A stretch of DNA of 64,000 nt from Candidatus Poribacteria bacterium (GTDB lineage: Bacteria; Poribacteria; WGA-4E; WGA-3G): positions 3,807,812-3,871,811 of the forward strand of contig OZ244048.1 in NCBI GenBank assembly GCA_965215265.1, given 5' to 3'. This document shows positions 6,098-53,393 of this stretch, one piece after another. Made by a program: the position numbers and the translations under genes. The notes beneath the pieces are model-generated. The model was given only the letters and a program-made list of their open reading frames with translations, was not told where the DNA came from and searched no databases. Within the stretch, counting starts at the first letter, position 1. Every line of letters begins with the position of its first letter.

Positions 6098-7174
6098 TCA
6101 AAATGTCGTGTACAAGGTTTGGGCTTGCCCGGTTTGGGCAGAGCGATACCCTGCATCGAAAATCTCTATCACGTGCCGAGCATGCTCCGCCGTAACGATG
6201 GTAGGCTTATCCTCACGGATCCAGTCTACTAACTGCATGATATCCTCGTACACATGTGATTCCTCAATATTCCGATGGGAACCCACCACGTGTGGCAATG
6301 CCATGTCCGGTGCTTCAATCGGTTTTCCGTTAAGCGAATTCCCTTGAATGCTACCCTCTGTTCCGTGAATCGCTAATCCGCCGCGGACGACTGAGCCCGC
6401 GGCCGCACCGTAGACAAATCCATAGAATGCCTCTCCGAAATCCAATAAAATGAAGGTGTTATCGTCCATATCGCAAGGAAGCATCTCGCCCCGGAATTCA
6501 CGCTCCTTGACTCGAACCCCAGAAAAAGCTGTCACGCGTTTCGCGGGACCGAGGATACCTGTCATGGTATGTAGACCGTAAACCGTCATATCGTAAAGGG
6601 GACCTCCGCCCGGTTTCCGGAAATACCACGCAGGGTTAATATTTGAGAGCAGATCGGCTCCGTGTCGAACGGATTCGTTTTCGTGGTATCTGCCGAAGGC
6701 CGAACCGGTCGCTGCCCACGTCAACGTTCCAATGGCACCGGCTCGAACGAGCCTGCGAATTTCTTGGTTAATCGGACGCAACATCTGCCCAGGTGAAGCG
6801 ACTAATTTTACGCCTTTGCGCGCCGCTGTCGCAATCAGATCATCCGCTTCGTCCACAGTAGTTGTCATTGTCTTATTAAAATGTGCATGAACACCGTGTT
6901 CTACCGCAAGTTTTCCCTGCTCGTAATGCAAACCGATCGGCGACGCAATGCTAACTGCATCTACATGTCCATCAGCCAATAGTTCTTCGTAACTTTCATA
7001 GGCATGCGGTACATTGAATTTTTCGGATGCGGCTCGTGCCCTGCCTGGGACCGGATCGCACACAGCAGTTACTTGCAGCCTATCTTGGACATCGTCTTGC
7101 GTAAGGTGCGGAAGAATCCCGCGCACCGAGATACTTCCCACCCCGACGACTCCGATCCGCACTCTATCGCTCAT
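6098..7174 (-). CDS. Gfo/Idh/MocA-family oxidoreductase
   Basis: N-terminal Rossmann IGVVGVGSISVRG. ATG at 7174 has SD GGAGG 5 nt upstream. This ATG overlaps the stop of the upstream epimerase gene (ATGA). ORF-track start 7186 is a GTG inside the SD. Confidence 0.8.
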   Translation of the reverse strand: MSDRVRIGVVGVGSISVRGILPHLTQDDVQDRLQVTAVCDPVPGRARAASEKFNVPHAYESYEELLADGHVDAVSIASPIGLHYEQGKLAVEHGVHAHFNKTMTTTVDEADDLIATAARKGVKLVASPGQMLRPINQEIRRLVRAGAIGTLTWAATGSAFGRYHENESVRHGADLLSNINPAWYFRKPGGGPLYDMTVYGLHTMTGILGPAKRVTAFSGVRVKEREFRGEMLPCDMDDNTFILLDFGEAFYGFVYGAAAGSVVRGGLAIHGTEGSIQGNSLNGKPIEAPDMALPHVVGSHRNIEESHVYEDIMQLVDWIREDKPTIVTAEHARHVIEIFDAGYRSAQTGQAQTLYTTF

Positions 7175-39578: not shown

Positions 39579-40571
39579 TTAAACAAGTGTACCGTTTGCA
39601 GCAGCATTGAGGTCAAGCCTATCACGGAGCCCTTGCTGGTATTTATGATAGGCGATTCCGGCAATCATTGCCCCGTTATCGGTGCAAAGTGGGATTGGCG
39701 GGTAGTAGACGTTCGCGCCGATATTATCAGCGGCAGTTTTGAGAGAGGTACGCAGCTGGCTATTCGCAGCGACGCCGCCGGTCAAGGTTATCGTGCGCGC
39801 GCCAGTCTCTTTCGCTGCGCGAACTGTTTTATAAACGAGGACATCTACAACAGCGGCTTGGAAACTCGCGGCAACATTTTCTATGCAAACGTTTTGCGTT
39901 TTCTCCACAAAATAACGTACGGACGTTTTAATGCCGCTAAAACTGAATTGGTAGTCGCCACTATTCCGGAGGGGGCGGGGGAAATTTATGGCCATCGGAT
40001 CTCCTTTCTGGGCGAGTTCGTCAATGACGCGCCCTCCCGGAAAACCGAGCCCCAAGTATTTGGCGACTTTATCATAGACTTCGCCGGCGGCATCATCTTG
40101 CGTGCTTCCTAATACCTTGTACTTCCACCCCTCATTAACTTCTACGAGCAGCGTATGTCCGCCAGAAACCGTAAGGCAGATATGCGGAAACCTCAAGCGA
40201 TCATGTACCATAAAGTTGGCGTAGATGTGCCCTTCAATGTGATTGATGCCGAGCAACGGCAGGCTATGGCAATAAGCGAGGCTCTTCGCGGCTGCAACAC
40301 CGACAAGCAATGCACCTATTAAGCCGGGCCGATTGGTAACAGCGACTGCGTTTAACTCTTGGAAAGAGATACCGGCTTGAGTCATCGCTCGATTAACGAT
40401 GTAGTTAATCGCTTCAATGTGTTTGCGTGATGCCAATTCCGGAACAATGCCACCGTATTCGCGGTGCTGTTCAATCTGTGAAGCGATAACGTTGGAGAGG
40501 AGCTCGCGTCCGTCCTTAACGACGGCGGCAGCGGTTTCATCACAAGAGGTATCAATGCCGAGAATTTTCAT
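39579..40571 (-). CDS. tsaD: tRNA N6-adenosine threonylcarbamoyltransferase
   Basis: MKILGIDTSCDETAAAVV N-terminus. Kae1/TsaD His-pair region GHIEGH. Confidence 0.9.
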   Translation of the reverse strand: MKILGIDTSCDETAAAVVKDGRELLSNVIASQIEQHREYGGIVPELASRKHIEAINYIVNRAMTQAGISFQELNAVAVTNRPGLIGALLVGVAAAKSLAYCHSLPLLGINHIEGHIYANFMVHDRLRFPHICLTVSGGHTLLVEVNEGWKYKVLGSTQDDAAGEVYDKVAKYLGLGFPGGRVIDELAQKGDPMAINFPRPLRNSGDYQFSFSGIKTSVRYFVEKTQNVCIENVAASFQAAVVDVLVYKTVRAAKETGARTITLTGGVAANSQLRTSLKTAADNIGANVYYPPIPLCTDNGAMIAGIAYHKYQQGLRDRLDLNAAANGTLV

Positions 40572-40732
40572 TGTTGATTCGTGGCGATAAGGCAAATTTT
40601 TGTAGAGTGCTTAGAGAACTTTTCGCAACGTGATTTATGATTATTTTTCCGAGTGAGCTGCTCGCGAGGGGCGCATGCATCAATTTTGCTCACGAGCAGC
40701 TAATCTGACTGGCTTGTTATGCAGTTCTGTTA

Positions 40733-42655
40733 TTAATTAAATCCACCGCTCATCATGCTAAGCATTTGAATGAATTGTTTGAAATCGCCGAGCGTGAGGA
40801 GGAGTTTCGCGTCGATGCCTCCGTCTCGTGCTTTGGCAGCGAAGCCGATGCTATAATTATCAGGTAGGTTCATCAGCATGCCCTCAAACGCTTGCAGTTC
40901 TGCAGCAGCGTTGGGGTCTGTGATTGGTATTAAAGGTAGAGCACCTTTAACTGCGATTATCGGCGAAATTGCTAAAAAGAGGTTATTCGCCGTGCCTAAC
41001 CTTTCTGCGAGATGCTGATAACTCGGATTTTCTGCAAGGGTGGCTCCTGTTCCTGACATCCGATCCAAGGCGTTTTTAATCGGTTGCGAACTGGCACCCA
41101 TGGATTGCAACAACTGTCCTTCATGAAAAGCGTAGTAAAAGTTATACGTTTGCGGCATGATTTGTGAAACAGATGGCGGAACATCCTGAAAAGCCTCCGT
41201 GAAGTTAGGGAAGAGGTAGCTTTTAATCTCTACGCCGTTATGCATTTCAGGGGTTCCGGCATGTGCATCCTTGTAAAGGTTAGGGGCTTGCACACTTAAG
41301 AGTCCGAGTGTCAATTGCTGTGAGACCTGTAATTGGTCAAGAAATGCTTCATCCATATAGGCCCTCACTTTTTGTTCATCTTGTAAATCAACAACGTTGA
41401 GATAATCTGGTATTAAACTATCCTCGAAATTCATGGTGAAAGTGCTAGTACCGCTGAGTGCCTCATACAAAGGAGTAGATATTTGGAGAAATTGTTCTAG
41501 TTGTTTCTTACCTTCCGGACCCTCTGCAAAAAGTTTCAATGAGGCTGTCATAAACTGAAGTAGTATGTCTGGACTCATCTGCAGTGCGCCATTGATAAAC
41601 GCGCGTTCGGGTAGAGTGTTGAGGCTTGTTAATTCCTGTGGCATTCCTTTCAGATGTTTCTGAATTTCGCTTTCGCTTTTGAATTCGAGGAAGTGCCCGA
41701 TTTGGATATCTGTGCCCTCAAGTTGAAGCGTTAAACCGAGGGATTTCAGCTGTTCAACGGTGCCTATGGCCATTCCGAACATCTTTTCAAATAGCACACT
41801 ATTCCCCATTGTTGCCGGATTGCTCTCCATGCTGTCAACTATAGAGCCCATCTCTTTCTTTAGTGCAGCACTCAGCATTGGCCCAATGGATTCAAAGCCG
41901 AGGTGAACTGTAATTAAGTTGTCAGTTTCCAAAGCATCGTTGAGGAGTGAGGCATAATCGGCATTCATTGTGATGGCTTGTGCCATGCCCTTATGGATAT
42001 CAATGGCATTTTCACAAACAGTCGCCTGCTGTGAAAAAACGAGAATGTCATTTAAAATAGCGAAGCTGCCGCTCCCACCTGCTGCATTCCAATAGGTGAT
42101 GCCGTTATATTCAACAGGTGAGGTGCCTTCCGCCTCCATTTCAATGACTTGCATCATTGCATCGGGTTCAGTCAAATGGACTGTTGCTGAAATTACTGGA
42201 GGTTCTAAGTGAGTGAAAAAGATTGCAAAATCCCTATTTAAATCGATCCCAATCTCTTCCAATTCTGAGAGTGTTTCAAATCCGGCACCGAACGTATCGG
42301 CTAAGATGCTGGCGAGGAGTTCTGGCGGCTGGGCGGCAGGCAGTAAATCAGCAGCCATTATGTTAATCCGCGTGTCTAATTCATTCAAACTGGGACAATA
42401 AATCAGTCCTAAATTCTTCTCAGGGATCAGATGCAAAACGCTATCGCTCGGCACCGTCGGCATACGGATTGCTACCGCTTCGGGAGCATCCCCGGGCATA
42501 TCACCTTCTTTTTCTTCTGTTTCATTTGTGACTTCAGGTTTAGAAGTCTGTGCTTCCATCGGAGTTGATGGATTCGCTTTTGAACTACACGCTATGAACA
42601 AAAATGGGCTTAAGAATGACAAGAGTACCAGGGTTAAAACCAAACATTTCTTCAT
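40733..42655 (-). CDS. large secreted lipoprotein, function unknown (DUF3352-like size and composition)
   Basis: Lipobox LSPFLFIACSS after signal peptide. ~640 aa. Start ATG 42655. Confidence 0.4.
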   Translation of the reverse strand: MKKCLVLTLVLLSFLSPFLFIACSSKANPSTPMEAQTSKPEVTNETEEKEGDMPGDAPEAVAIRMPTVPSDSVLHLIPEKNLGLIYCPSLNELDTRINIMAADLLPAAQPPELLASILADTFGAGFETLSELEEIGIDLNRDFAIFFTHLEPPVISATVHLTEPDAMMQVIEMEAEGTSPVEYNGITYWNAAGGSGSFAILNDILVFSQQATVCENAIDIHKGMAQAITMNADYASLLNDALETDNLITVHLGFESIGPMLSAALKKEMGSIVDSMESNPATMGNSVLFEKMFGMAIGTVEQLKSLGLTLQLEGTDIQIGHFLEFKSESEIQKHLKGMPQELTSLNTLPERAFINGALQMSPDILLQFMTASLKLFAEGPEGKKQLEQFLQISTPLYEALSGTSTFTMNFEDSLIPDYLNVVDLQDEQKVRAYMDEAFLDQLQVSQQLTLGLLSVQAPNLYKDAHAGTPEMHNGVEIKSYLFPNFTEAFQDVPPSVSQIMPQTYNFYYAFHEGQLLQSMGASSQPIKNALDRMSGTGATLAENPSYQHLAERLGTANNLFLAISPIIAVKGALPLIPITDPNAAAELQAFEGMLMNLPDNYSIGFAAKARDGGIDAKLLLTLGDFKQFIQMLSMMSGGFN

Positions 42656-42760
42656 GACAGATTTCTCCAATTTGTTTGTCAGTGTTAAGCAATAGCGGAC
42701 CTTGCTGTTTTAGAGTGTCGCGATCCGGTGCTCGTGTTCAGAAAAAAAACTAAAATTCCT

Positions 42761-43858
42761 TTATTGCCGTTGATTTTGGACGGAGGTAATTTTTTCTTGA
42801 AGTGCGTTGATTTCGGCGTTGGAAGTGAGCACGCCGATTTCGACTTCGTAGTGTCTCCTACCGCCGGGTTCAATGTATTGTAAGGTGCCTTGCTCGCGTG
42901 CCGTTGCCCTGCCATCAACCGAGCAGTTTGAGGGTTCCAGTCCCATGACGTAGGTACCTTCGCTGCACATTTTCCATTGAACGAAGTTTGGGAATTGTGT
43001 TTTGTGGTATCGGACAGAAACCCCAATTCCGCGTCCGTTGTTAAAAGCACGGTTGACTAAGGCAACATGGATGTGGTTATCCACGTCAGCTTCCATAGTG
43101 TGGTAGTAAACTTGTTCTTGGAAATCGACGGTAGGCGGCTCTCCGCGGTTGTAATTATTCAGGTTGTGAGAGGCATGTTCGTCTCGAGGTGTGACTTGTG
43201 TAGAAGGTGCGAGGAATTCGCTGCCTTCTGCGAGGATAGGGAATCCGACATTAATATGGAAGAGGTACATGTGCGGTGAATCTTGGTATCCCAAGTTTTC
43301 GACGATATCCTCAATGTGTAAGGTATGGGACCCCAGCTCGGTCCAAATTCGCCGTGTGCGACAAAGATTTTCGCCCAATGCGGCGGTTTCGGTGACCTTT
43401 CCCTGTGCCCATAGCATGTACCTGTGCCCTTCCCATCGTCCATCAACCCACACGTTTTTGGCTGGAATGTGTGAGACCCGGCCATGTAATCCGAGTTCTT
43501 CGTCGGCATCGTGTGTGGGTGTACCGACTTGCCGCATGCCGCAGGTGGTCAACAAACCTCCGTAGAAACTGCGGAGCCAGCCAAACCGTTGTGGTTCATA
43601 ATGAGCTGGGTTGACATCCCCGGTGCTTGAACGCCAACAGAGGGGGATACCTTGATATTCTGCATAAGAGATATCCAATGCACGACTCGGTAGAACGGTA
43701 AAGTTCAAACCGGAACCGGTACGGAAATCAATCGCATCAACACCCTTTTCAGAACCGTCTGTGAGTTGATACTGTTTGGCGTGCGCAATTTGTGAAATAT
43801 CCCCTACGTGGCGAAGTAGTTGTATTCTATCATACTTTTCCCCATATAGGTTGATCAA
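42761..43858 (-). CDS. aldose-1-epimerase-like / DUF4432-family protein
   Basis: 365 aa, beta-rich. Weak resemblance to galactose-mutarotase-like fold proteins. Low certainty. Confidence 0.4.
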   Translation of the reverse strand: MINLYGEKYDRIQLLRHVGDISQIAHAKQYQLTDGSEKGVDAIDFRTGSGLNFTVLPSRALDISYAEYQGIPLCWRSSTGDVNPAHYEPQRFGWLRSFYGGLLTTCGMRQVGTPTHDADEELGLHGRVSHIPAKNVWVDGRWEGHRYMLWAQGKVTETAALGENLCRTRRIWTELGSHTLHIEDIVENLGYQDSPHMYLFHINVGFPILAEGSEFLAPSTQVTPRDEHASHNLNNYNRGEPPTVDFQEQVYYHTMEADVDNHIHVALVNRAFNNGRGIGVSVRYHKTQFPNFVQWKMCSEGTYVMGLEPSNCSVDGRATAREQGTLQYIEPGGRRHYEVEIGVLTSNAEINALQEKITSVQNQRQ

Positions 43859-44200
43859 ATTAACGTTCTCCTTCGTTTAAATTTCCATAAGGACTCGCGA
43901 ATTCTGTTATCAGGTTTTGGAAACTCAATATTATACAAAATTATAGCATAAATGTCTGAAAAAATGCAACTTTTTTGTGGGGTGTGTGGTGAGAGCGTTT
44001 TTAGTTGACAGCGTTTTGGTTTTTATGGTATCTTTAACACTTGAAGTCAATTCTCGCCTGCTGTCGTGCGCCAATGAATTTACCCTTTTTTGTAGTGTCC
44101 AGGGCTCACAGCCAAGAAAGTGTGTTATAAATGCTGTCTCGGTGTACAATTGCAGATAAGGCGAGCAAATCTGGGAATATATCTGTTTTGACACCAGAAT

Positions 44201-44319
44201 GCTAACCACTTCGGTTAGGGAGAACAAAAAATCGCCCAACGAGGCGAACGAGTCTGGTAGGATGTATCTATTTATGTGATTGTCCTAACCACTCCCGTTA
44301 AGGGGAGACGAAAAGGCAA
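44201..44319 (+). promoter_or_regulatory. duplicated 36-nt hairpin-containing motif upstream of tusA-like operon
   Basis: GCTAACCACTTCGGTTAGGGAGAACAAAAAATCGCC (44201-44236) and CCTAACCACTCCCGTTAAGGGGAGACGAAAAGGCAA (44284-44319). The second ends 8 nt before the ATG. Confidence 0.4.
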
Positions 44320-44326
44320 TTTGACA

Positions 44327-44578
44327 ATGAATTTACCCGATATCACGCCTGACGCTGTTTGCGATTTAGGCGACCTGAGCTGCGGAGACCTGATTATCGC
44401 GGTCTTAAGAGCGATGCGTCCTCTTGAACCGGGACAGATAGCACAAATCCGAGCAGTGGACCCGGGGGCACCTGTCGACATCGCGGCGTGGTGTAACATG
44501 AAAGGCAATGAACTTCTCGCAGATTGCTGTGGGGAAGACAAGGCCTATTTTTTTATTAAAAAAGGAGATCAGTACTAA
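44327..44578 (+). CDS. TusA-like sulfur-carrier protein (variant Cys motif CGD instead of CPxP)
   Basis: LGDLSCGDLIIAVLRAMRPLEPGQIAQIRAVDPGAPVDIAAWCNMKGNELL follows TusA two-layer alpha/beta pattern. Stop overlaps next start (TAATG). Confidence 0.5.
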   Translation: MNLPDITPDAVCDLGDLSCGDLIIAVLRAMRPLEPGQIAQIRAVDPGAPVDIAAWCNMKGNELLADCCGEDKAYFFIKKGDQY

Positions 44579-44937
44579 TGGCTAAACTCATGATTAGCAT
44601 TACCCATGCGAAAGATAACCCAGACAAAGCTACGGTAGGTTTTGTGGTGGCTAACGCCTCCGGTGCATCTGGCGTAGAGACGGTTGTATTCCTCAGTACA
44701 GACGGGGTATATCTTTCGCAAGCTGGGTACGCGGATGACACTCACGAAGAGGGCTTCGCGCCTCTGAAACAACTCATAGCGGATTTCGCAGAGATAGGTG
44801 GTACGATATGGGTGTGTTCGCCGTGTTTCAAAAAGCGTGCTCTTGATGCAAATAACCTTATCGATGCTGCCACAATTGTGGGCGGCGCGAAGGCTGTTGA
44901 GTTCTTAACGACAGGGGCTTCCTGTATCACCTATTGA
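44578..44937 (+). CDS. DsrE/DsrF-like sulfur-relay family protein
   Basis: 119 aa. MAKLMISITHAKDNPDKATVGFVVANASGASGVETVVFLSTDGV... with conserved Cys region WVCSPC. Confidence 0.6.
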   Translation: MAKLMISITHAKDNPDKATVGFVVANASGASGVETVVFLSTDGVYLSQAGYADDTHEEGFAPLKQLIADFAEIGGTIWVCSPCFKKRALDANNLIDAATIVGGAKAVEFLTTGASCITY

Positions 44938-45129
44938 AATTGGAAAAGGGAGTTGCTGCCTATCTCGGTAGAAACTTCTTTGAAGGATGGGTTTCATCCC
45001 AAGCCTGATGTGAGAATGCCTTTCTACAACGGAGTAAATTTCTAAAGACTTTACTATATGCTATTCCTTTGTAGGTAAGGCTTCTCATCAAACGTTCTAT
45101 TCTAAAAGATAAAGCATAAAATACAAAAG

Positions 45130-45873
45130 ATGATGCGAGAAGAAGATTTAAAAGCACCAGATACGTTGCAGACACCGCATGTGTGCGAAGGCGGCAATCT
45201 CGACTGCGGTTCAGGGCTGCTGCTGTTGATTCGTAAATCAATGGAAGTTGTGCCGGATGGTGAGGTTTTAGAAATTCGCAGCACAGAAATCAGCGTTAAG
45301 GAGGACCTGCCGGCGTGGTGCCGGATGACGAAAAACCCGTATCTAGGGTGGAGGCCGGCACTAGAACATAACAAATACTTTGTACGGCGCGGCGAAGCAG
45401 GGCAGGAGGCAAATGCTGCCTACCAGCAAGCACGAGATTACCGTTGGAGTACCCGAATCCATTGGGATGGTGGCCTGCAGGCGAAGGTTTTCTGTCGGAA
45501 TCACGCTTGGACAGTCGGGCAACCTGCAAGTTTTGATGTGCAGGATGCAGCACCGAGTGCAGTGGAGTATGTCCTCGGTGCCTTGGGCGCGTGCCTCGCG
45601 ATGGGATTTCAGATTCGTGCCTCGCAGCGCAATGTGGAAATTGAGGAATTAGAAATTTCGTTGAGTGGCCAGATCGATAACATTTTCGTTTTCCTTGGCA
45701 CGGAGCAAGATGGGGATAGCGGTTTCAAGGAGATCCGCGGGACCATTTATGTCGACTCGGATGCGGATGAGGAGGTTTTGGAGAAGTTATGGGCAGAAAC
45801 AATCGCTGCGTCGCCTGTGACGAGCACGTTGACACGAAACGTTGAGATGAACGTTGCGTTGCGATTGATTTGA
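45130..45873 (+). CDS. fusion protein: TusA-like N-terminal domain + OsmC/Ohr-like C-terminal domain
   Basis: N-terminus LDCGSGLLLLIRKSMEVVPDGEVLEIRSTE...DLPAWC (TusA-like). C-terminus YVLGALGACLAMGFQIRASQRNVEIEELEISLSGQ (OsmC-like Cys). Confidence 0.5.
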   Translation: MMREEDLKAPDTLQTPHVCEGGNLDCGSGLLLLIRKSMEVVPDGEVLEIRSTEISVKEDLPAWCRMTKNPYLGWRPALEHNKYFVRRGEAGQEANAAYQQARDYRWSTRIHWDGGLQAKVFCRNHAWTVGQPASFDVQDAAPSAVEYVLGALGACLAMGFQIRASQRNVEIEELEISLSGQIDNIFVFLGTEQDGDSGFKEIRGTIYVDSDADEEVLEKLWAETIAASPVTSTLTRNVEMNVALRLI

Positions 45874-45940
45874 AAATGGAAATGCAGAGGTTACCTATAT
45901 TTTCAAGGTAAAACTCGAAAGGTTTAATAGGAAAACGGAT

Positions 45941-46786
45941 ATGACAGAATTTCTTAAGCTGATGATCCCATGTAAGCTGATGATCCCATGGTTGTGGGGC
46001 GATATTGAGTGGATCACGGAAAGTTTTATTACTACCATTTTTTTATGCACGTCGGTGTTAGTAATTCGGTTTTGGAGGAAAACCTTCAATCGATGCAGCT
46101 TAATTGACGGGTTAACCAAATACGTAAGTGAATACTCCAGACCTGCCAATCCAAAGATTCTTCAGAAGTTAAAAGAGGAATTTAATCGGCGCAACGTTGA
46201 ACTCTCCGAAGTGTTGCAGGAATTTGCTGATTCACTCATTACCCGTGAAAAGAATAATAATCAGAAGATCGTGTACAAAACAGACGAGGCCTCTCTTTTT
46301 TTTAGCGAAGACCGGCTGTTAGAGCAACACTTAAACCTCCGCTTTTGGAATAGTGTTCCTGCCCTTTTGGTAGGATTAGGGATTCTTGGCACGTTTGTCG
46401 GGCTTGTTTTCGGACTGCAATCATTTTCAGATATTAATTTTGAGAACACGGATGAGATTCAACGGGCCATTAAACAACTCCTCTCCGGCGTGTCGATTGC
46501 TTTTGTAACCTCCGTTTGGGGCATGCTGTTCTCGCTTCTGTTCAACGCATTGGAAAAGTGGCTTGTTGGCAGAGTCGGCAAGGCGATTGCGGATCTGCAG
46601 CGTGCCTTGGATCGACTTTTTACGCTGACCACCCAAGAGGAGATTTCGTTAAAACAACAAGACGAACTCGCGCAACAGACACGGGCCTTCAAAGAATTGT
46701 CGACGGATTTGGCGAGTGCAATCTTCGATACCTTTTATATCAGGTTATCCGAGACCACTTCAGTTTGGAAAACGTTTTTATCGTGA
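45941..46786 (+). CDS. MotA/TolQ/ExbB-family proton-channel protein with truncated coiled-coil tail (ZorA-like fragment)
   Basis: Signature TM2/TM3 PALLVGLGILGTFVGLVFGL...GVSIAFVTSVWGMLFSLLFNA. Then ~70 aa of coiled coil that runs into the out-of-frame SNF2 C-terminal region. No MotB/ExbD/TolR partner. Confidence 0.5.
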   Translation: MTEFLKLMIPCKLMIPWLWGDIEWITESFITTIFLCTSVLVIRFWRKTFNRCSLIDGLTKYVSEYSRPANPKILQKLKEEFNRRNVELSEVLQEFADSLITREKNNNQKIVYKTDEASLFFSEDRLLEQHLNLRFWNSVPALLVGLGILGTFVGLVFGLQSFSDINFENTDEIQRAIKQLLSGVSIAFVTSVWGMLFSLLFNALEKWLVGRVGKAIADLQRALDRLFTLTTQEEISLKQQDELAQQTRAFKELSTDLASAIFDTFYIRLSETTSVWKTFLS

Positions 46787-47640
46787 ACGGTGAGACACCC
46801 GGGAGTGCACAGCGAGCAGGTACAATGAAAATGAGCCGTCAACAAGCCGTTGATTCCTTTCAGAAAACCGCGGGTTTCAACGCCATCGTCATGTCCCCAC
46901 TTGCAGCGGGAGTTGGGTTAAACATTACAGAAGCGAACCATGTTATTCACTATAGCCGTTGGTGGAATCCTGCAAAAGAAGATCAGGCGAGCGACCGGGT
47001 TTATCGAATTGGACAAAAACGCCGGGTGCATATCTACCTCCCGATGGCAACCCATCCGGAATTTAAAACTTTTGATGTTATCCTACATGAACTCCTTGAG
47101 CGAAAACGCCGGCTGTTGCAAGACACTCTGCTCCCGACAGAACGTGCCGAAGTGAAACCTGTCGAAATTCTAACTAAATTAGACCCAATAACACCTAACA
47201 GAGGAAAAGAGTCCACATTAACGATAGAAGACGTTGACAGGCTAGATCCAAGATTCTTTGAAATTTGTGTCGCTGCACTTTTTCAGAAACAGGGTTATCG
47301 TGTTGAGGTAACGCCTTACTCAGGCGATAAAGGTGCGGATATCGTCGTTTATCCATGTGCAGACGGGAATACTGGATTTCTAATCTAGGTCAAACAACGT
47401 CGGGCGGACGGAAAATCGGCGCGTGATGCTGTCGACGAGATCATTGCGGCGAAGCTGTTTTATGAGGAAAAATATGCCATGTCTTTCAAGCCTCTTGTTA
47501 TTACCAACCGGGAGTTTACCAAAGACGCTCGCGGATACGGTCAGAAGAATCAGGTAAAGATGTACGAACGCAAAGAGTTGAAACGAAATTTAAAGCAATA
47601 TCCCGTGACGTGGCAAGATGTGAACCGGTGCCAGTTCTGA
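46700..47640 (+). pseudogene. remnant: SNF2-helicase C-terminal half fused to Mrr-type (Mrr_cat) endonuclease domain, in-frame TAG at 47386-47388
   Basis: Helicase motifs IV-VI: FNAIVMSPLAAGVGLNITEANHVIHYSRWWNPAKEDQASDRVYRIGQKRRVHIY. Mrr_cat: GDKGADIVVYPCADGNTGFLI*VKQRRADGKSARDAVDEI...FKPLVITNREFTKDA. The N-terminal ATPase half is absent. Confidence 0.6.
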
Positions 47641-47717: not shown

Positions 47718-47861
47718 ATGCCAGAAAACAAAAACCGCAACCGTTCTACCCATGCCTACACTATAAGGGGCAATACGGCGATTGAGCTCGATCCCGATTG
47801 TGCGGATGCGTTTAAGAAATTTCTCCCCGCGATGGGGATTCATCCCCGCTTGCGGGGATAA
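47718..47861 (+). CDS. small ORF (47 aa), hypothetical
   Basis: ATG with SD GAGGAG 7 nt upstream. 3' end overlaps GC-rich hairpin ATCCCCGCTTGCGGGGAT. Below the ORF-track size cutoff. Confidence 0.3.
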   Translation: MPENKNRNRSTHAYTIRGNTAIELDPDCADAFKKFLPAMGIHPRLRG

Positions 47862-48526
47862 TTCCTTCTGCGGGCGGGGCTTTGCGAAGGCGAACATGGC
47901 ACAATATGCTGAAGCGATACCCGATTACGATATCGCTCGCTATAAAATTCAACCCCAATAAAGCCTTATCATATCATATGCGTGCTGAGGCGAAGGCACA
48001 GTTAGAGAGAACCGGGGAGCCGGAAGCGGATTACTAATCCGCATCGAAAATTGGCGGGTTCAACCCAATATTCGAACTGTTGACGCATCAAGACAAGAGT
48101 AGGATGCCAAAAGAAGGATATCCCGGTCTCATTTTAATGCTGAAAACACTAACTAAGCGGCGGGCACGTCGGTCATGACTGTCTGCAGAACAGCGTCTTT
48201 TTTTATTCATTGTTTTTATTAGAATGTTATAATCTCTCTTGGACTAACTAACTCATGGTGATATGCGGTTAGGATAATTATAGTGAAGTACGGGGTAATT
48301 CCGTTGACAAAACGTCGGTATTTATCGACGAGGGCCCGCCCACCCGGAACCGGGCGGGCTCACCGAAAGCATGCGCCACTTTGCTTATGCCCCAAAGAGG
48401 TTTGTGTCAACGAGACCCGCACCGGCAATCCGTATAGACAGAGAATCATCATCCTTGGCAAATGGACCTCACTATAGTAAAATGATATAGTTTGTGACGC
48501 ATATTCCTAAACGGAGATTATTTTTG

Positions 48527-51210: not shown

Positions 51211-52230
51211 ATGCCTGACACTGACGCTAATTTACCAATCAATCAAATATTGTGTGGAGATAATTGTCAACTTATCAAAAAATTACCTGACTGCAGCGTT
51301 CAATTGGTAATCACGTCACCTCCGTATTTTCAGCAGCGCGATTACGGCGGCGGAATCGGAAATGAGCAAAATGTCAATCAATACATTGATAGGCTCCTTC
51401 ATCTTTTCCAGGAATGTGTCCGTGTTGTGAAGGAGGACGGTAGCCTGGTATTCAATCTAGGCGATAAATATCAGCACAGCAACCTCCTCCTCGTTCCCTA
51501 TCGCTTTGCAATTGCCGCTACGGAAACAAGCCGGGTCAAACTCGTGAACGAAATCACGTGGGTTAAACGGAATCCTACGCCGCGCCAGTTTCGGCGGCGC
51601 CTCGTGAGCAGCACGGAGCCGTTTTTCCACTTTGTCAAATCGGATGCTTATTTCTATAACCTTGATGCATTCTTGGCTTCGGCACGCACTGACAAAAAGT
51701 CGGGCCCAAAATTGGGTACAAATATTGGGCAGCGGTATTTTGAGCTCATTGCGGATTCAGAGTTATCAGAGGCAGAGAAAACGGCTGCGCGGCGTGAACT
51801 TACAGAAGTCATCCATGAGGTGCGGTGCGGTCAGATACACAGTTTCCGGATGAAAATTCGGGGTGTTCACGCCGAACCGTTCGGCGGGCAAATTGGTGGA
51901 CGCACACTACAGATGAAGAATAAAGGGTTCACGATTATCCGGATGCACGGCAATAAACTCAAGCGAGATGTGATTGAAACGTCGGTTGCTGCCATTAAGG
52001 GAAACAAGCATCCGGCGATTTATCCGGTGGAAATTGTGGAGGAGTTTTTACATCTGCTCACGCGGCCGGGTGCTCTGGTTTTAGATCCGTTTATAGGTTC
52101 CGGTTCAACGGCAGTCGCTTGTCAAAAACTTGGTAGACACTATATCGGCTATGACATTAATCCAGACTACTGCGAGTCTGCACGACAACGAGTTTCAGAT
52201 ATACAAGGCGAAACACCCCATTTATTTTAA
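51211..52230 (+). CDS. DNA methyltransferase, beta-class (N4-cytosine or N6-adenine; PF01555-like)
   Basis: Motif IV VITSPPYF at residue ~33. Motif I VLDPFIGSGSTAVA at the C-terminus. The order IV-to-I defines the beta class. Confidence 0.85.
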   Translation: MPDTDANLPINQILCGDNCQLIKKLPDCSVQLVITSPPYFQQRDYGGGIGNEQNVNQYIDRLLHLFQECVRVVKEDGSLVFNLGDKYQHSNLLLVPYRFAIAATETSRVKLVNEITWVKRNPTPRQFRRRLVSSTEPFFHFVKSDAYFYNLDAFLASARTDKKSGPKLGTNIGQRYFELIADSELSEAEKTAARRELTEVIHEVRCGQIHSFRMKIRGVHAEPFGGQIGGRTLQMKNKGFTIIRMHGNKLKRDVIETSVAAIKGNKHPAIYPVEIVEEFLHLLTRPGALVLDPFIGSGSTAVACQKLGRHYIGYDINPDYCESARQRVSDIQGETPHLF

Positions 52231-52238
52231 GAAAAACT

Positions 52239-53393
52239 ATGAATCACGTACGCACAATTTTAGAGAACGTTTATCAGCGTGCTGAATCAAACAGCATTAA
52301 CACTTCCGATCTTTCCGAAGCCCAACAAAAATGGGTCGAAACGATCGTCAAGAAGGCGGATTCTCATAAAGGGGTTCTCGCTGTACTAATGACTTCCTTA
52401 GTCAAAAAGATTGAAACGCCGACACAAGATGTTCGATTTCACAAAAAGGAGCCGGCAAATGGATATTCAGGAAGAAGTTTTGATAACGAATACGTGACAC
52501 CCTTTATTCTAGAGAAATTTGAGCGCCTTGCTATGAAGGGAGGAAGTGGTTGGTTGACACGTTCGCTTGAACAACCTCATCCCTTCACACTTGATTATCC
52601 AGGTCGGATTCAAGATAAGTTTGTAAAGGAGGCTTTTCTTCAAATCCTCAATGACGTTGAAAAAAACCGGGGAGATCCGGAAAAATACCTTTGTACTGTA
52701 TTCGTTGGCTTAATTGCTTTGATGGAAAGCTACAATGTCAACTTTATTGTATTGGAAAAGAATAATAGGCAATTTGCACAAGCACCACAAAACGAGGCTA
52801 TAACAATTGAAGATATAGTGAATCTTTTAAGACAGCACTTTTCGCACAACTATCGCGTTGCAGGAGCATCACGTCTTCCGGTATTGGCAATTTATTCCGC
52901 TTATGAAGTATTGTTTATGGCAAATAATCGATATAAAGACAAAATACTTTCGCCATTGAAAAGTCATACTACATCAGATGTCAAATCTGGCGGAATTGGC
53001 GACATTGAAGTCTTGGACGAAAATGGCAGTTTTTTCGAAGGTGTTGAAATAAAACATAACATCCCTATTTCAGCAACGTTGGTTAGAGATGCATATCACA
53101 AGTTTGCTCAGAGAACTGTTACCCGTTATTATCTACTCACTACAGCTGAGCCAGATGTTGATGATGTAGATGCAGTAAACTGGATAGTCCGTCAAATTCG
53201 CACTGAACACGGTTGCGAAGTAATCGTCAACGGCATTCTTCCATCATTAAAATACTATCTACGTCTTTTAAAAGATTCAACAATGTTTTTAGCTAAGTAC
53301 ACAGAAAATCTTCAGTTAGATGCTAAGCGGAATGCCGACATTAAGGAAATTCACTTACGTTACTGGAAAGATTTGTTAGATTCTTTGGTATAA
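52239..53393 (+). CDS. putative Type II restriction endonuclease (PD-(D/E)XK)
   Basis: Starts 8 nt after the MTase stop. Candidate catalytic motif GIGDIEV...EGVEIKH (D...E-x-K). No other recognisable family. Confidence 0.5.
   Translation: MNHVRTILENVYQRAESNSINTSDLSEAQQKWVETIVKKADSHKGVLAVLMTSLVKKIETPTQDVRFHKKEPANGYSGRSFDNEYVTPFILEKFERLAMKGGSGWLTRSLEQPHPFTLDYPGRIQDKFVKEAFLQILNDVEKNRGDPEKYLCTVFVGLIALMESYNVNFIVLEKNNRQFAQAPQNEAITIEDIVNLLRQHFSHNYRVAGASRLPVLAIYSAYEVLFMANNRYKDKILSPLKSHTTSDVKSGGIGDIEVLDENGSFFEGVEIKHNIPISATLVRDAYHKFAQRTVTRYYLLTTAEPDVDDVDAVNWIVRQIRTEHGCEVIVNGILPSLKYYLRLLKDSTMFLAKYTENLQLDAKRNADIKEIHLRYWKDLLDSLV

Follow-up and report, generated by a model that had tools for sequence, protein, structure and literature searches.

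Type I Zorya, with its gene order ZorA-ZorB-ZorC-ZorD, was reportedly defined by Doron et al. in 2018. Zorya defence needs the ZorA5B2 motor, the full ZorA tail, and ZorC and ZorD, and within the motor ZorB is the ion-conducting and peptidoglycan-anchoring half. The type I system of E. coli has been dissected structurally (Hu et al., Nature 2024, PMC11946911). In that work defence was lost in every ZorA tail truncation tested although the motor still assembled, ZorC and ZorD gave no protection without ZorAB, and the DEAQ box was needed for the nuclease activity of E. coli ZorD (PMC11946911). Mrr is mentioned 0 times in the same paper, whereas the ZorD of Poribacteria has a C-terminal Mrr_cat domain, and the PADLOC ZorD1 models are described as "SWI2/SNF2 helicase, Mrr-like nuclease".

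The locus described here is, at a probability that we put at about 0.93, the fossil, no longer functional, of a type I Zorya operon zorABCD whose ZorD carried a C-terminal Mrr nuclease, left by a 5,700-bp deletion and later by a C-to-T change that created a stop codon. It lies in the window, by which we mean the whole 64-kb stretch of DNA that was analysed. An earlier note on this DNA had already called it the fossil of a Zorya-type or related MotA-coupled anti-phage system. Its observation holds at a level far beyond chance, and its Zorya reading stands, since both remaining pieces match Zorya profiles and an intact zorABCD occupies the same site in a conspecific strain (L087). The feature is a pseudogenised case of a well-characterised system that is recognised by standard defence profiles, and in this sense it is already known and ordinary. 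Its parts, with zorA' and zorD' for the two remnants, are these:

45941 to 46786, forward strand: zorA' open reading frame, 281 codons plus stop (ORF list)
45955 to 45990, forward strand: perfect 18-bp tandem duplication (KLMIPC/KLMIPW) at the 5' end of zorA' (repeat search, family D1)
46322 to 46597, forward strand: MotA/ExbB channel core (TM2-TM3 region) of ZorA' (Pfam PF01618, residues 128-219, E 1.6e-7)
46730 to 46731, forward strand: deletion junction GATA/CCTT (blastn against L087 and a base-by-base view of both breakpoints)
46732 to 47640, forward strand: zorD' remnant, ZorD codons 824-1125 with their own stop (PADLOC ZorD1, NCBIfam, tblastn)
46819 to 47013, forward strand: Helicase_C domain of zorD' (Pfam PF00271, E 2.7e-12)
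47236 to 47586, forward strand: Mrr_cat nuclease domain of zorD', split by the stop (Pfam PF04471, E 3e-9 for profile positions 2-41 and E 2.2e-4 for 55-113)
47386 to 47388, forward strand: nonsense codon TAG, ZorD codon 1042 (sequence and translation)

The ORF list and the Pfam match bear out the first gene as a MotA/TolQ/ExbB-type channel ORF, as the earlier note had it, and its preference for a ZorA layout over TolQ or ExbB holds as well, with ZorA-specific profiles at E 3e-39 compared with 2e-7 for Pfam. ZorA' matched PADLOC ZorA1 (PDLC00601) with E 2.8e-39 over profile positions 22-246 of 699 and NCBIfam antiphage_ZorA_2 with E 1e-36, and so retains the MotA-like membrane core of ZorA of type I Zorya; it is also 68% identical over residues 1-252 to the ZorA of an intact operon (L002). 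Codons 1-263 are derived from zorA, while the final 18 codons and the TGA stop (46784-46786) lie past the junction and are out-of-frame zorD sequence. The long C-terminal coiled-coil tail of ZorA is therefore missing, given that the zorA-derived part stops at codon 263 and the intact orthologue has 641 aa; about 45-60 tail residues survive, rather than the ~70 first proposed. The 18-bp duplication belongs to the window strain only and is absent in L087 and in a sister strain (L001) that shares the deletion. As had also been claimed, a MotB/TolR/ExbD partner is absent, and tblastn of the 64-kb window found no ZorB homology.

The second piece contains the RecA2 lobe (SNF2 motifs IV-VI) and then the Mrr nuclease domain in another frame, an arrangement read correctly from the start and now supported by the Helicase_C and Mrr_cat matches listed above and by a match to PADLOC ZorD1 (PDLC00631) with E 1.7e-79 over positions 786-982 of 1071, which resumes past the stop with E 1.1e-13 over positions 997-1070. 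The NCBIfam anti-phage_ZorD model matched with E 1.2e-34, and by tblastn the piece is 66% identical to residues 819-1122 of the L002 ZorD. Its first in-frame ATG is at 46825, and a public gene call (P0083, 187 aa) corresponds to 46825-47385. The TAG that the earlier note had placed in frame is present in sequence and translation; it stands where the conserved LIQVK motif of the Mrr domain has its Gln, which we take to be the (Q/E)xK part of the Mrr-like PD-(D/E)xK catalytic motif. An intact Mrr_cat in one frame, as in a stand-alone Mrr, is not encoded, with the stop splitting the domain between profile positions 41 and 55. In a three-way alignment the TAG (seen in one assembly) is CAG in L001 and L087, and this position is Q in the L002 ZorD and in the ZorD' protein of the sister strain. 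Because both other strains have CAG, the TAG is a later change on the window lineage, in agreement with the proposed order of deletion followed by nonsense mutation. Nor is there a complete SNF2 ATPase with a DEAQ-box N-lobe and a C-lobe: SNF2-rel_dom is absent and only residues 824-1125 are left. The suspected loss of the N-terminal half of the helicase was confirmed by tblastn with the proteins of an intact Zorya operon, which gave no ZorB, ZorC or ZorD N-terminal homology in the whole 64-kb window.

The extent of the loss was obtained from L087 (ENA ERZ21848999, 47 kb, also in NCBI), a conspecific strain with ~99% nucleotide identity and the same flanking genes, and the intact orthologous locus in a sister genome that had been suggested as a check. 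It was found via a 1125-aa protein (P0197) belonging to the 90%-identity cluster of a 271-aa protein of L001. Its zorA (641 aa), zorB (245 aa), zorC (474 aa) and zorD (1125 aa) are all open and match PADLOC ZorA1, ZorB (E 6e-83), ZorC1 (E 9e-31) and ZorD1. The two strains share genes for TsaD, DUF3352, DUF4432, TusA, DsrE and OsmC upstream, and downstream a TPR gene, an N6/N4 methyltransferase, a GNAT-like ORF, an ANT(2'')-like gene, a second methyltransferase, a 384-aa ORF and a MetE-like gene. By blastn, window positions 40013-46730 correspond to L087 1-6768 and 46731-57659 to L087 12469-23378, at 97-99% identity, so that exactly 5,700 bp of L087 (6769-12468) have no counterpart in the window; the collinearity, with ~99% identity on both sides of the gap, places the remnant and the intact operon at the same site. 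The zorA' gene is collinear with the zorA of L087 until 46730, where the first base of zorA codon 280 (L087 numbering, equal to 263 codons in the window owing to indels further upstream) joins the third base of zorD codon 823, and the two frames differ. The frame switch, put at around 46700 in the earlier note, is thus corrected to between 46730 and 46731. The junction is blunt, with no bases common to the two L087 breakpoints and no microhomology. The single gap accounts for all the losses that had been predicted (zorA tail, zorB and zorC, 5' half of a zorD-like gene): it took nearly all of the cytoplasmic ZorA tail, ZorB (MotB-like, with an OmpA-type domain) and ZorC (EH-signature), both present in L087 and not in the window, and ZorD residues 1-823 with the N-terminal domain and the SNF2 ATPase lobe.

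The window is a single assembly, and related long-read metagenome contigs have frameshifted zor genes that are possibly errors (L083 at 18x and L085 at 6x coverage). We considered whether sequencing or assembly could have produced the frame switch, the stop, or both, by a wrong base or by a chimeric join that hides an intact operon. This we regard as highly improbable. A protein search returned a near-identical 273-aa ZorA' (P0002) on a 407-kb contig from another sample, L001 (ENA ERZ25070786), with the gene order of the window. Its junction is identical to that of the window and is followed by the same out-of-frame ZorA' tail of 20 residues, and its flanks are ~1% different from those of the window, which makes it an independent observation and excludes the assembly chimera against which the earlier note had cautioned. 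As for a base error, the TAG lies within a ~450-bp (453-bp) stretch bearing 22 window-specific substitutions and is no isolated miscall. Further copies of the junction were sought by two exact-pattern scans of JGI metagenome contigs; the first gave nothing, and the second gave one candidate (L086), which matched exactly over 21 nt (23 nt by blastn), lacked Zorya homology and was rejected. Least credible of all is that the first ORF is an ordinary TolQ/ExbB-type gene beside an unrelated Mrr-type enzyme, their adjacency being coincidental. Pfam alone yields just MotA_ExbB, Helicase_C and Mrr_cat, and would allow it; the ZorA-specific profiles are far ahead of MotA_ExbB, the TolR/ExbD partner is absent, and the two pieces align collinearly with codons 1-263 of the 641-aa ZorA and with codons 824-1125 of the ZorD of L087, an alignment that already refutes the coincidence. 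ZorA' does share the transmembrane region of MotA/TolQ/ExbB stators (PF01618), but it is a truncated ZorA with an out-of-frame tail, whereas native TolQ/ExbB proteins are ~230 aa long and have a TolR/ExbD gene next to them. Similarly, the 3' end of zorD' encodes a Mrr_cat domain of the PD-(D/E)xK type found in Mrr type IV restriction endonucleases (PF04471), but in Zorya this domain is fused to an SNF2 helicase instead of an N-terminal DNA-binding domain, and in the window the Gln of IQVK is a stop. Other SNF2-helicase defence proteins (DpdE, DISARM DrmD, BREX BrxH) gave weaker helicase-C matches (DpdE E 1e-33, DrmD E 6e-11); the ZorD1 match is more than 40 orders of magnitude better, and the orthology with zorD is seen directly in the alignment to L087.

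It could also be imagined that the remnant has been retained as a small module with a new function (a decoy, a membrane sensor or a nuclease) whose nuclease half was lost recently in the window strain. The zorA' frame is open in both the window and L001, and the indels between them in its 5' part (21, 9 and 12 bp) are all multiples of three. The zorD' ORF of L001 is intact (271 aa, Helicase_C and Mrr_cat), with few changes in its helicase-C part (3 synonymous and 3 non-synonymous). The zorA' stop overlaps a GTG that is in frame with zorD (GTGA at 46783-46786), and in a separate lineage (L039) an ORF for the ZorD C-terminus likewise comes straight after one for the ZorA N-terminus. Against this, whenever a deletion falls within an operon, the start of its first gene and the end of its last gene are bound to survive, and L039 and a similar case (L037) are as expected from independent decay, given that the ZorD C-terminus was the search key. 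Between the window and L001, ten flanking genes have pS 0.025 and pN 0.0046 (ratio ~0.18), whereas zorA' has dS 0.062 and dN 0.105 and zorD' has dS 0.048 and dN 0.033, giving dN/dS of ~0.7-1.7 for the remnants. On an alignment of 28 intact Poribacteria operons, which defined the near-invariant columns, changes in the window, the sister or both fall in 8 of 84 such ZorA columns (among them W92L in the window and W193S in the sister) and in 3 of 57 ZorD columns. The dN/dS values together with these replacements mark both remnants as being under relaxed constraint. With near-invariant residues replaced in both strains, a TAG within the Mrr motif and ZorB absent from the window, we consider retention of such a module very unlikely. 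Two related ideas were rejected. The many 273-274-aa proteins that look like a stand-alone Helicase_C and Mrr family come from contigs that show a complete zorABCD with zorD split or frameshifted just upstream of MKMSRQQ, and for a programmed -1 frameshift fusing ZorA' to ZorD' no slippery heptamer was seen at the junction (by inspection only), while the downstream TAG would break the fusion.

Returning to the fossil reading, the pieces in the window are orthologous to the zorA and zorD of L087, whose gene order and profiles are those of type I Zorya (ZorC1 with the EH signature), but the window keeps just ZorA residues 1-263 and ZorD residues 824-1125, the latter with a stop in the nuclease domain. 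Since the tail, ZorB, ZorC and the ATPase lobe with the DEAQ box are lacking, the locus presumably cannot work as Zorya. At most two products would remain possible, a 281-aa ZorA channel core without ZorB and tail and a 187-aa half-helicase fragment without a complete nuclease.

The three strains (window, L001 and L087) are about equidistant in the flanks (0.9-1.1%), and beyond 53.4 kb downstream the window is only 0.16% different from L087. Within the zorA core (46445-46694) the window is identical to L087, and L001 has 12 differences. Changes unique to one strain number 22 (window), 5 (sister) and 2 (intact strain) in the Mrr part. Acceleration is seen in all three lineages across codons 1-107 of zorA, where the sister has 30 unique changes and the window and L087 have 9 each; the window and L087 differ there by 24 non-synonymous and 0 synonymous changes, and every indel is in frame. 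The substitution density at the zorA 5' end and in the window Mrr part is several-fold greater than the neutral expectation from the flanks, and simple clock-like decay does not explain such local hot spots, at 45941-46261 and 47188-47640 in the remnant. Along the locus, the two strains with the deletion are not most closely related to each other, which implies that homologous recombination moved the deletion or the surrounding segments between strains. Our preferred reading is that the deletion allele may be older than the flank divergence suggests, and that it would have decayed neutrally, with patches overwritten by gene conversion from intact alleles. Deleted and intact alleles would coexist in a recombining population, which could explain the three-strain mosaic.

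A more eventful history is conceivable, in which an old deletion variant persists in the sponge-symbiont population, the ZorA N-terminus is under diversifying selection, for example from phage counter-defence, and the core and/or the RecA2-Mrr fragment is partly active; we think this unlikely. Three sources of the hot spots were examined and rejected. A donor of the divergent zorA 5' segment was not apparent, as the N-terminal 110 residues of window and sister are no closer to any of ~40 other Poribacteria ZorA proteins (30-56% identity for both). A generally fast-evolving ZorA N-terminus does not agree with a pN/pS of 0.18 there in L003/L005, the one close intact pair available. A diversity-generating retroelement would fit poorly with alignments in which no obvious substitution-type bias was seen (by inspection only, with types untallied). 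What stays curious about this locus is the hot spots, and that one species has both the deleted and the intact allele.

Scanning species-representative genomes with the ZorD C-terminus yielded ~40 loci in Candidatus Poribacteria MAGs at 60-72% identity; as the scan was keyed on ZorD, the counts that follow cover ZorD-bearing loci and not Zorya-free genomes. Full upstream context was available for 37 loci; at 29 of them all four zor genes are single open frames, the ZorA lengths being 573 to 874 aa, and the other 8 are disrupted. In L039, ZorA residues 1-336 are followed directly by ZorD residues 891-1125, L037 lacks zorB, zorC and the greater part of zorD, and L029 has a 3.4-kb insertion in zorB. 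The remaining five (L008, L028, L032, L042 and L045) show frameshifts, stops or partial losses, some of them possibly sequencing errors. These comparisons indicate that decay of zorABCD is recurrent, the window being one case with its own breakpoints.

The remnant is part of a variable block of ~7.5 kb (~45.9 to 53.4 kb) that is flanked by housekeeping genes and contains, besides the Zorya remnant, two type II-like DNA methyltransferases (PADLOC MTase_II, E 1.7e-147 and 3e-59), the GNAT-like ORF, the ANT(2'')-like gene and the 384-aa ORF. This last, a putative restriction gene that immediately follows the second methyltransferase, occurs in the window and L087 and is mostly deleted in L001, and the small TPR gene after zorD is broken only in the window among the three strains. 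In all, at least 4 independent differences in gene content or gene integrity occur within 7.5 kb among three near-identical strains, which supports local turnover. The earlier description of a turnover-prone defence island is therefore upheld, though less strongly than the rest: the strains do differ in Zorya, the putative restriction gene and the TPR gene, and the island is small (~7.5 kb). As regards integration-site markers, no tRNA gene and no known RNA family was found in the window.

For annotation, the locus has practical value, in that public gene calls give its fragments as unnamed ordinary proteins of 281 aa and 187 aa, and a defence-system finder would report a lone ZorA or ZorD match here. 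Our understanding of the Zorya mechanism is unchanged by it. What the locus offers is a base-exact, three-strain example of how a defence operon is lost, by a blunt 5.7-kb deletion and then by point decay, and it shows the presence or absence of Zorya to be polymorphic within one species of uncultivated Poribacteria.

The first ~107 codons of zorA (window 45941-46261) form a substitution hot spot across three strains that are about 99% identical, namely the window, its sister strain L001 and the conspecific strain L087, in which the operon is intact. Between the window and L087 these codons differ by 24 non-synonymous and no synonymous changes, and over ~300 bp at the zorA 5' end 30 changes are unique to the sister strain. 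All the indels that separate the three strains in these codons are in frame. The hot spot was not seen in the other intact species pair that was compared, for which pN/pS was 0.18. One of the length changes lies near the start of zorA', the 5' remnant of the gene, and is found in the window only, with neither L001 nor L087 having it:

45955-45990, perfect 18-bp tandem duplication (TAAGCTGATGATCCCATG x2), six codons gained

The intact zorA of L087 has an in-frame internal duplication of its own, of ~66 bp (about 6110-6210 of its contig, KFNEHNDE twice), which is missing from the window and from L001. It sits in the loop that follows transmembrane helix 1, and the length of this loop differs among all three strains. 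At the other end of zorA', the TGA stop shares bases with a GTG of the zorD frame (GTGA, window 46783-46786). This could in principle permit translational coupling into the ZorD' fragment; the overlap is probably coincidental.

The same Zorya operon has decayed independently in the representatives of other Poribacteria species:

L039, 8838-10711, ZorA 1-336, then immediately ZorD 891-1125
L037, 7736-10756, zorB, zorC and most of zorD gone
L029, 2393-5789, zorB interrupted by a 3.4-kb insertion

In some Poribacteria whose operons are otherwise complete, gene calling divides zorD into two ORFs, with the break immediately 5' of the conserved MKMSRQQ motif:

L084, 5428-8822, split zorD of 858 + 273 aa, stop and start overlapping in ATGA
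L085, 5459-8825, split zorD of 805 + 274 aa

These could be genuine split genes or could reflect frameshift errors, and such two-ORF calls account for the many database proteins of 273-274 aa annotated as 'Helicase_C+Mrr'.

Downstream of the zorD remnant, three further genes of the window were considered:

47718-48040, + strand, small TPR gene 3' of zorD
51211-52230, N6/N4 DNA methyltransferase gene
52239-53393, + strand, 384-aa ORF starting 9 bp past the methyltransferase gene

The TPR gene is an open ORF of 98 aa in L001 and is disrupted in the window by a 4-bp indel and a 19-bp insertion (about 47824-47842), the latter creating a second GC-rich hairpin beside one already there. The 384-aa ORF lies in a low-GC tract (39-41%) and had no sequence match in Pfam, PADLOC, NCBIfam or PDB. 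More than 2,000 proteins of about 383 aa are homologous to it, and many of these carry a precomputed match to PF09566, the SacI restriction enzyme family; a direct scan here did not reproduce this match. The ORF is a candidate for the restriction endonuclease of a type II restriction-modification pair. Both the window and L087 carry it, whereas most of it is deleted in L001; if it is the restriction partner, the sister strain would have been left with an orphan methyltransferase.
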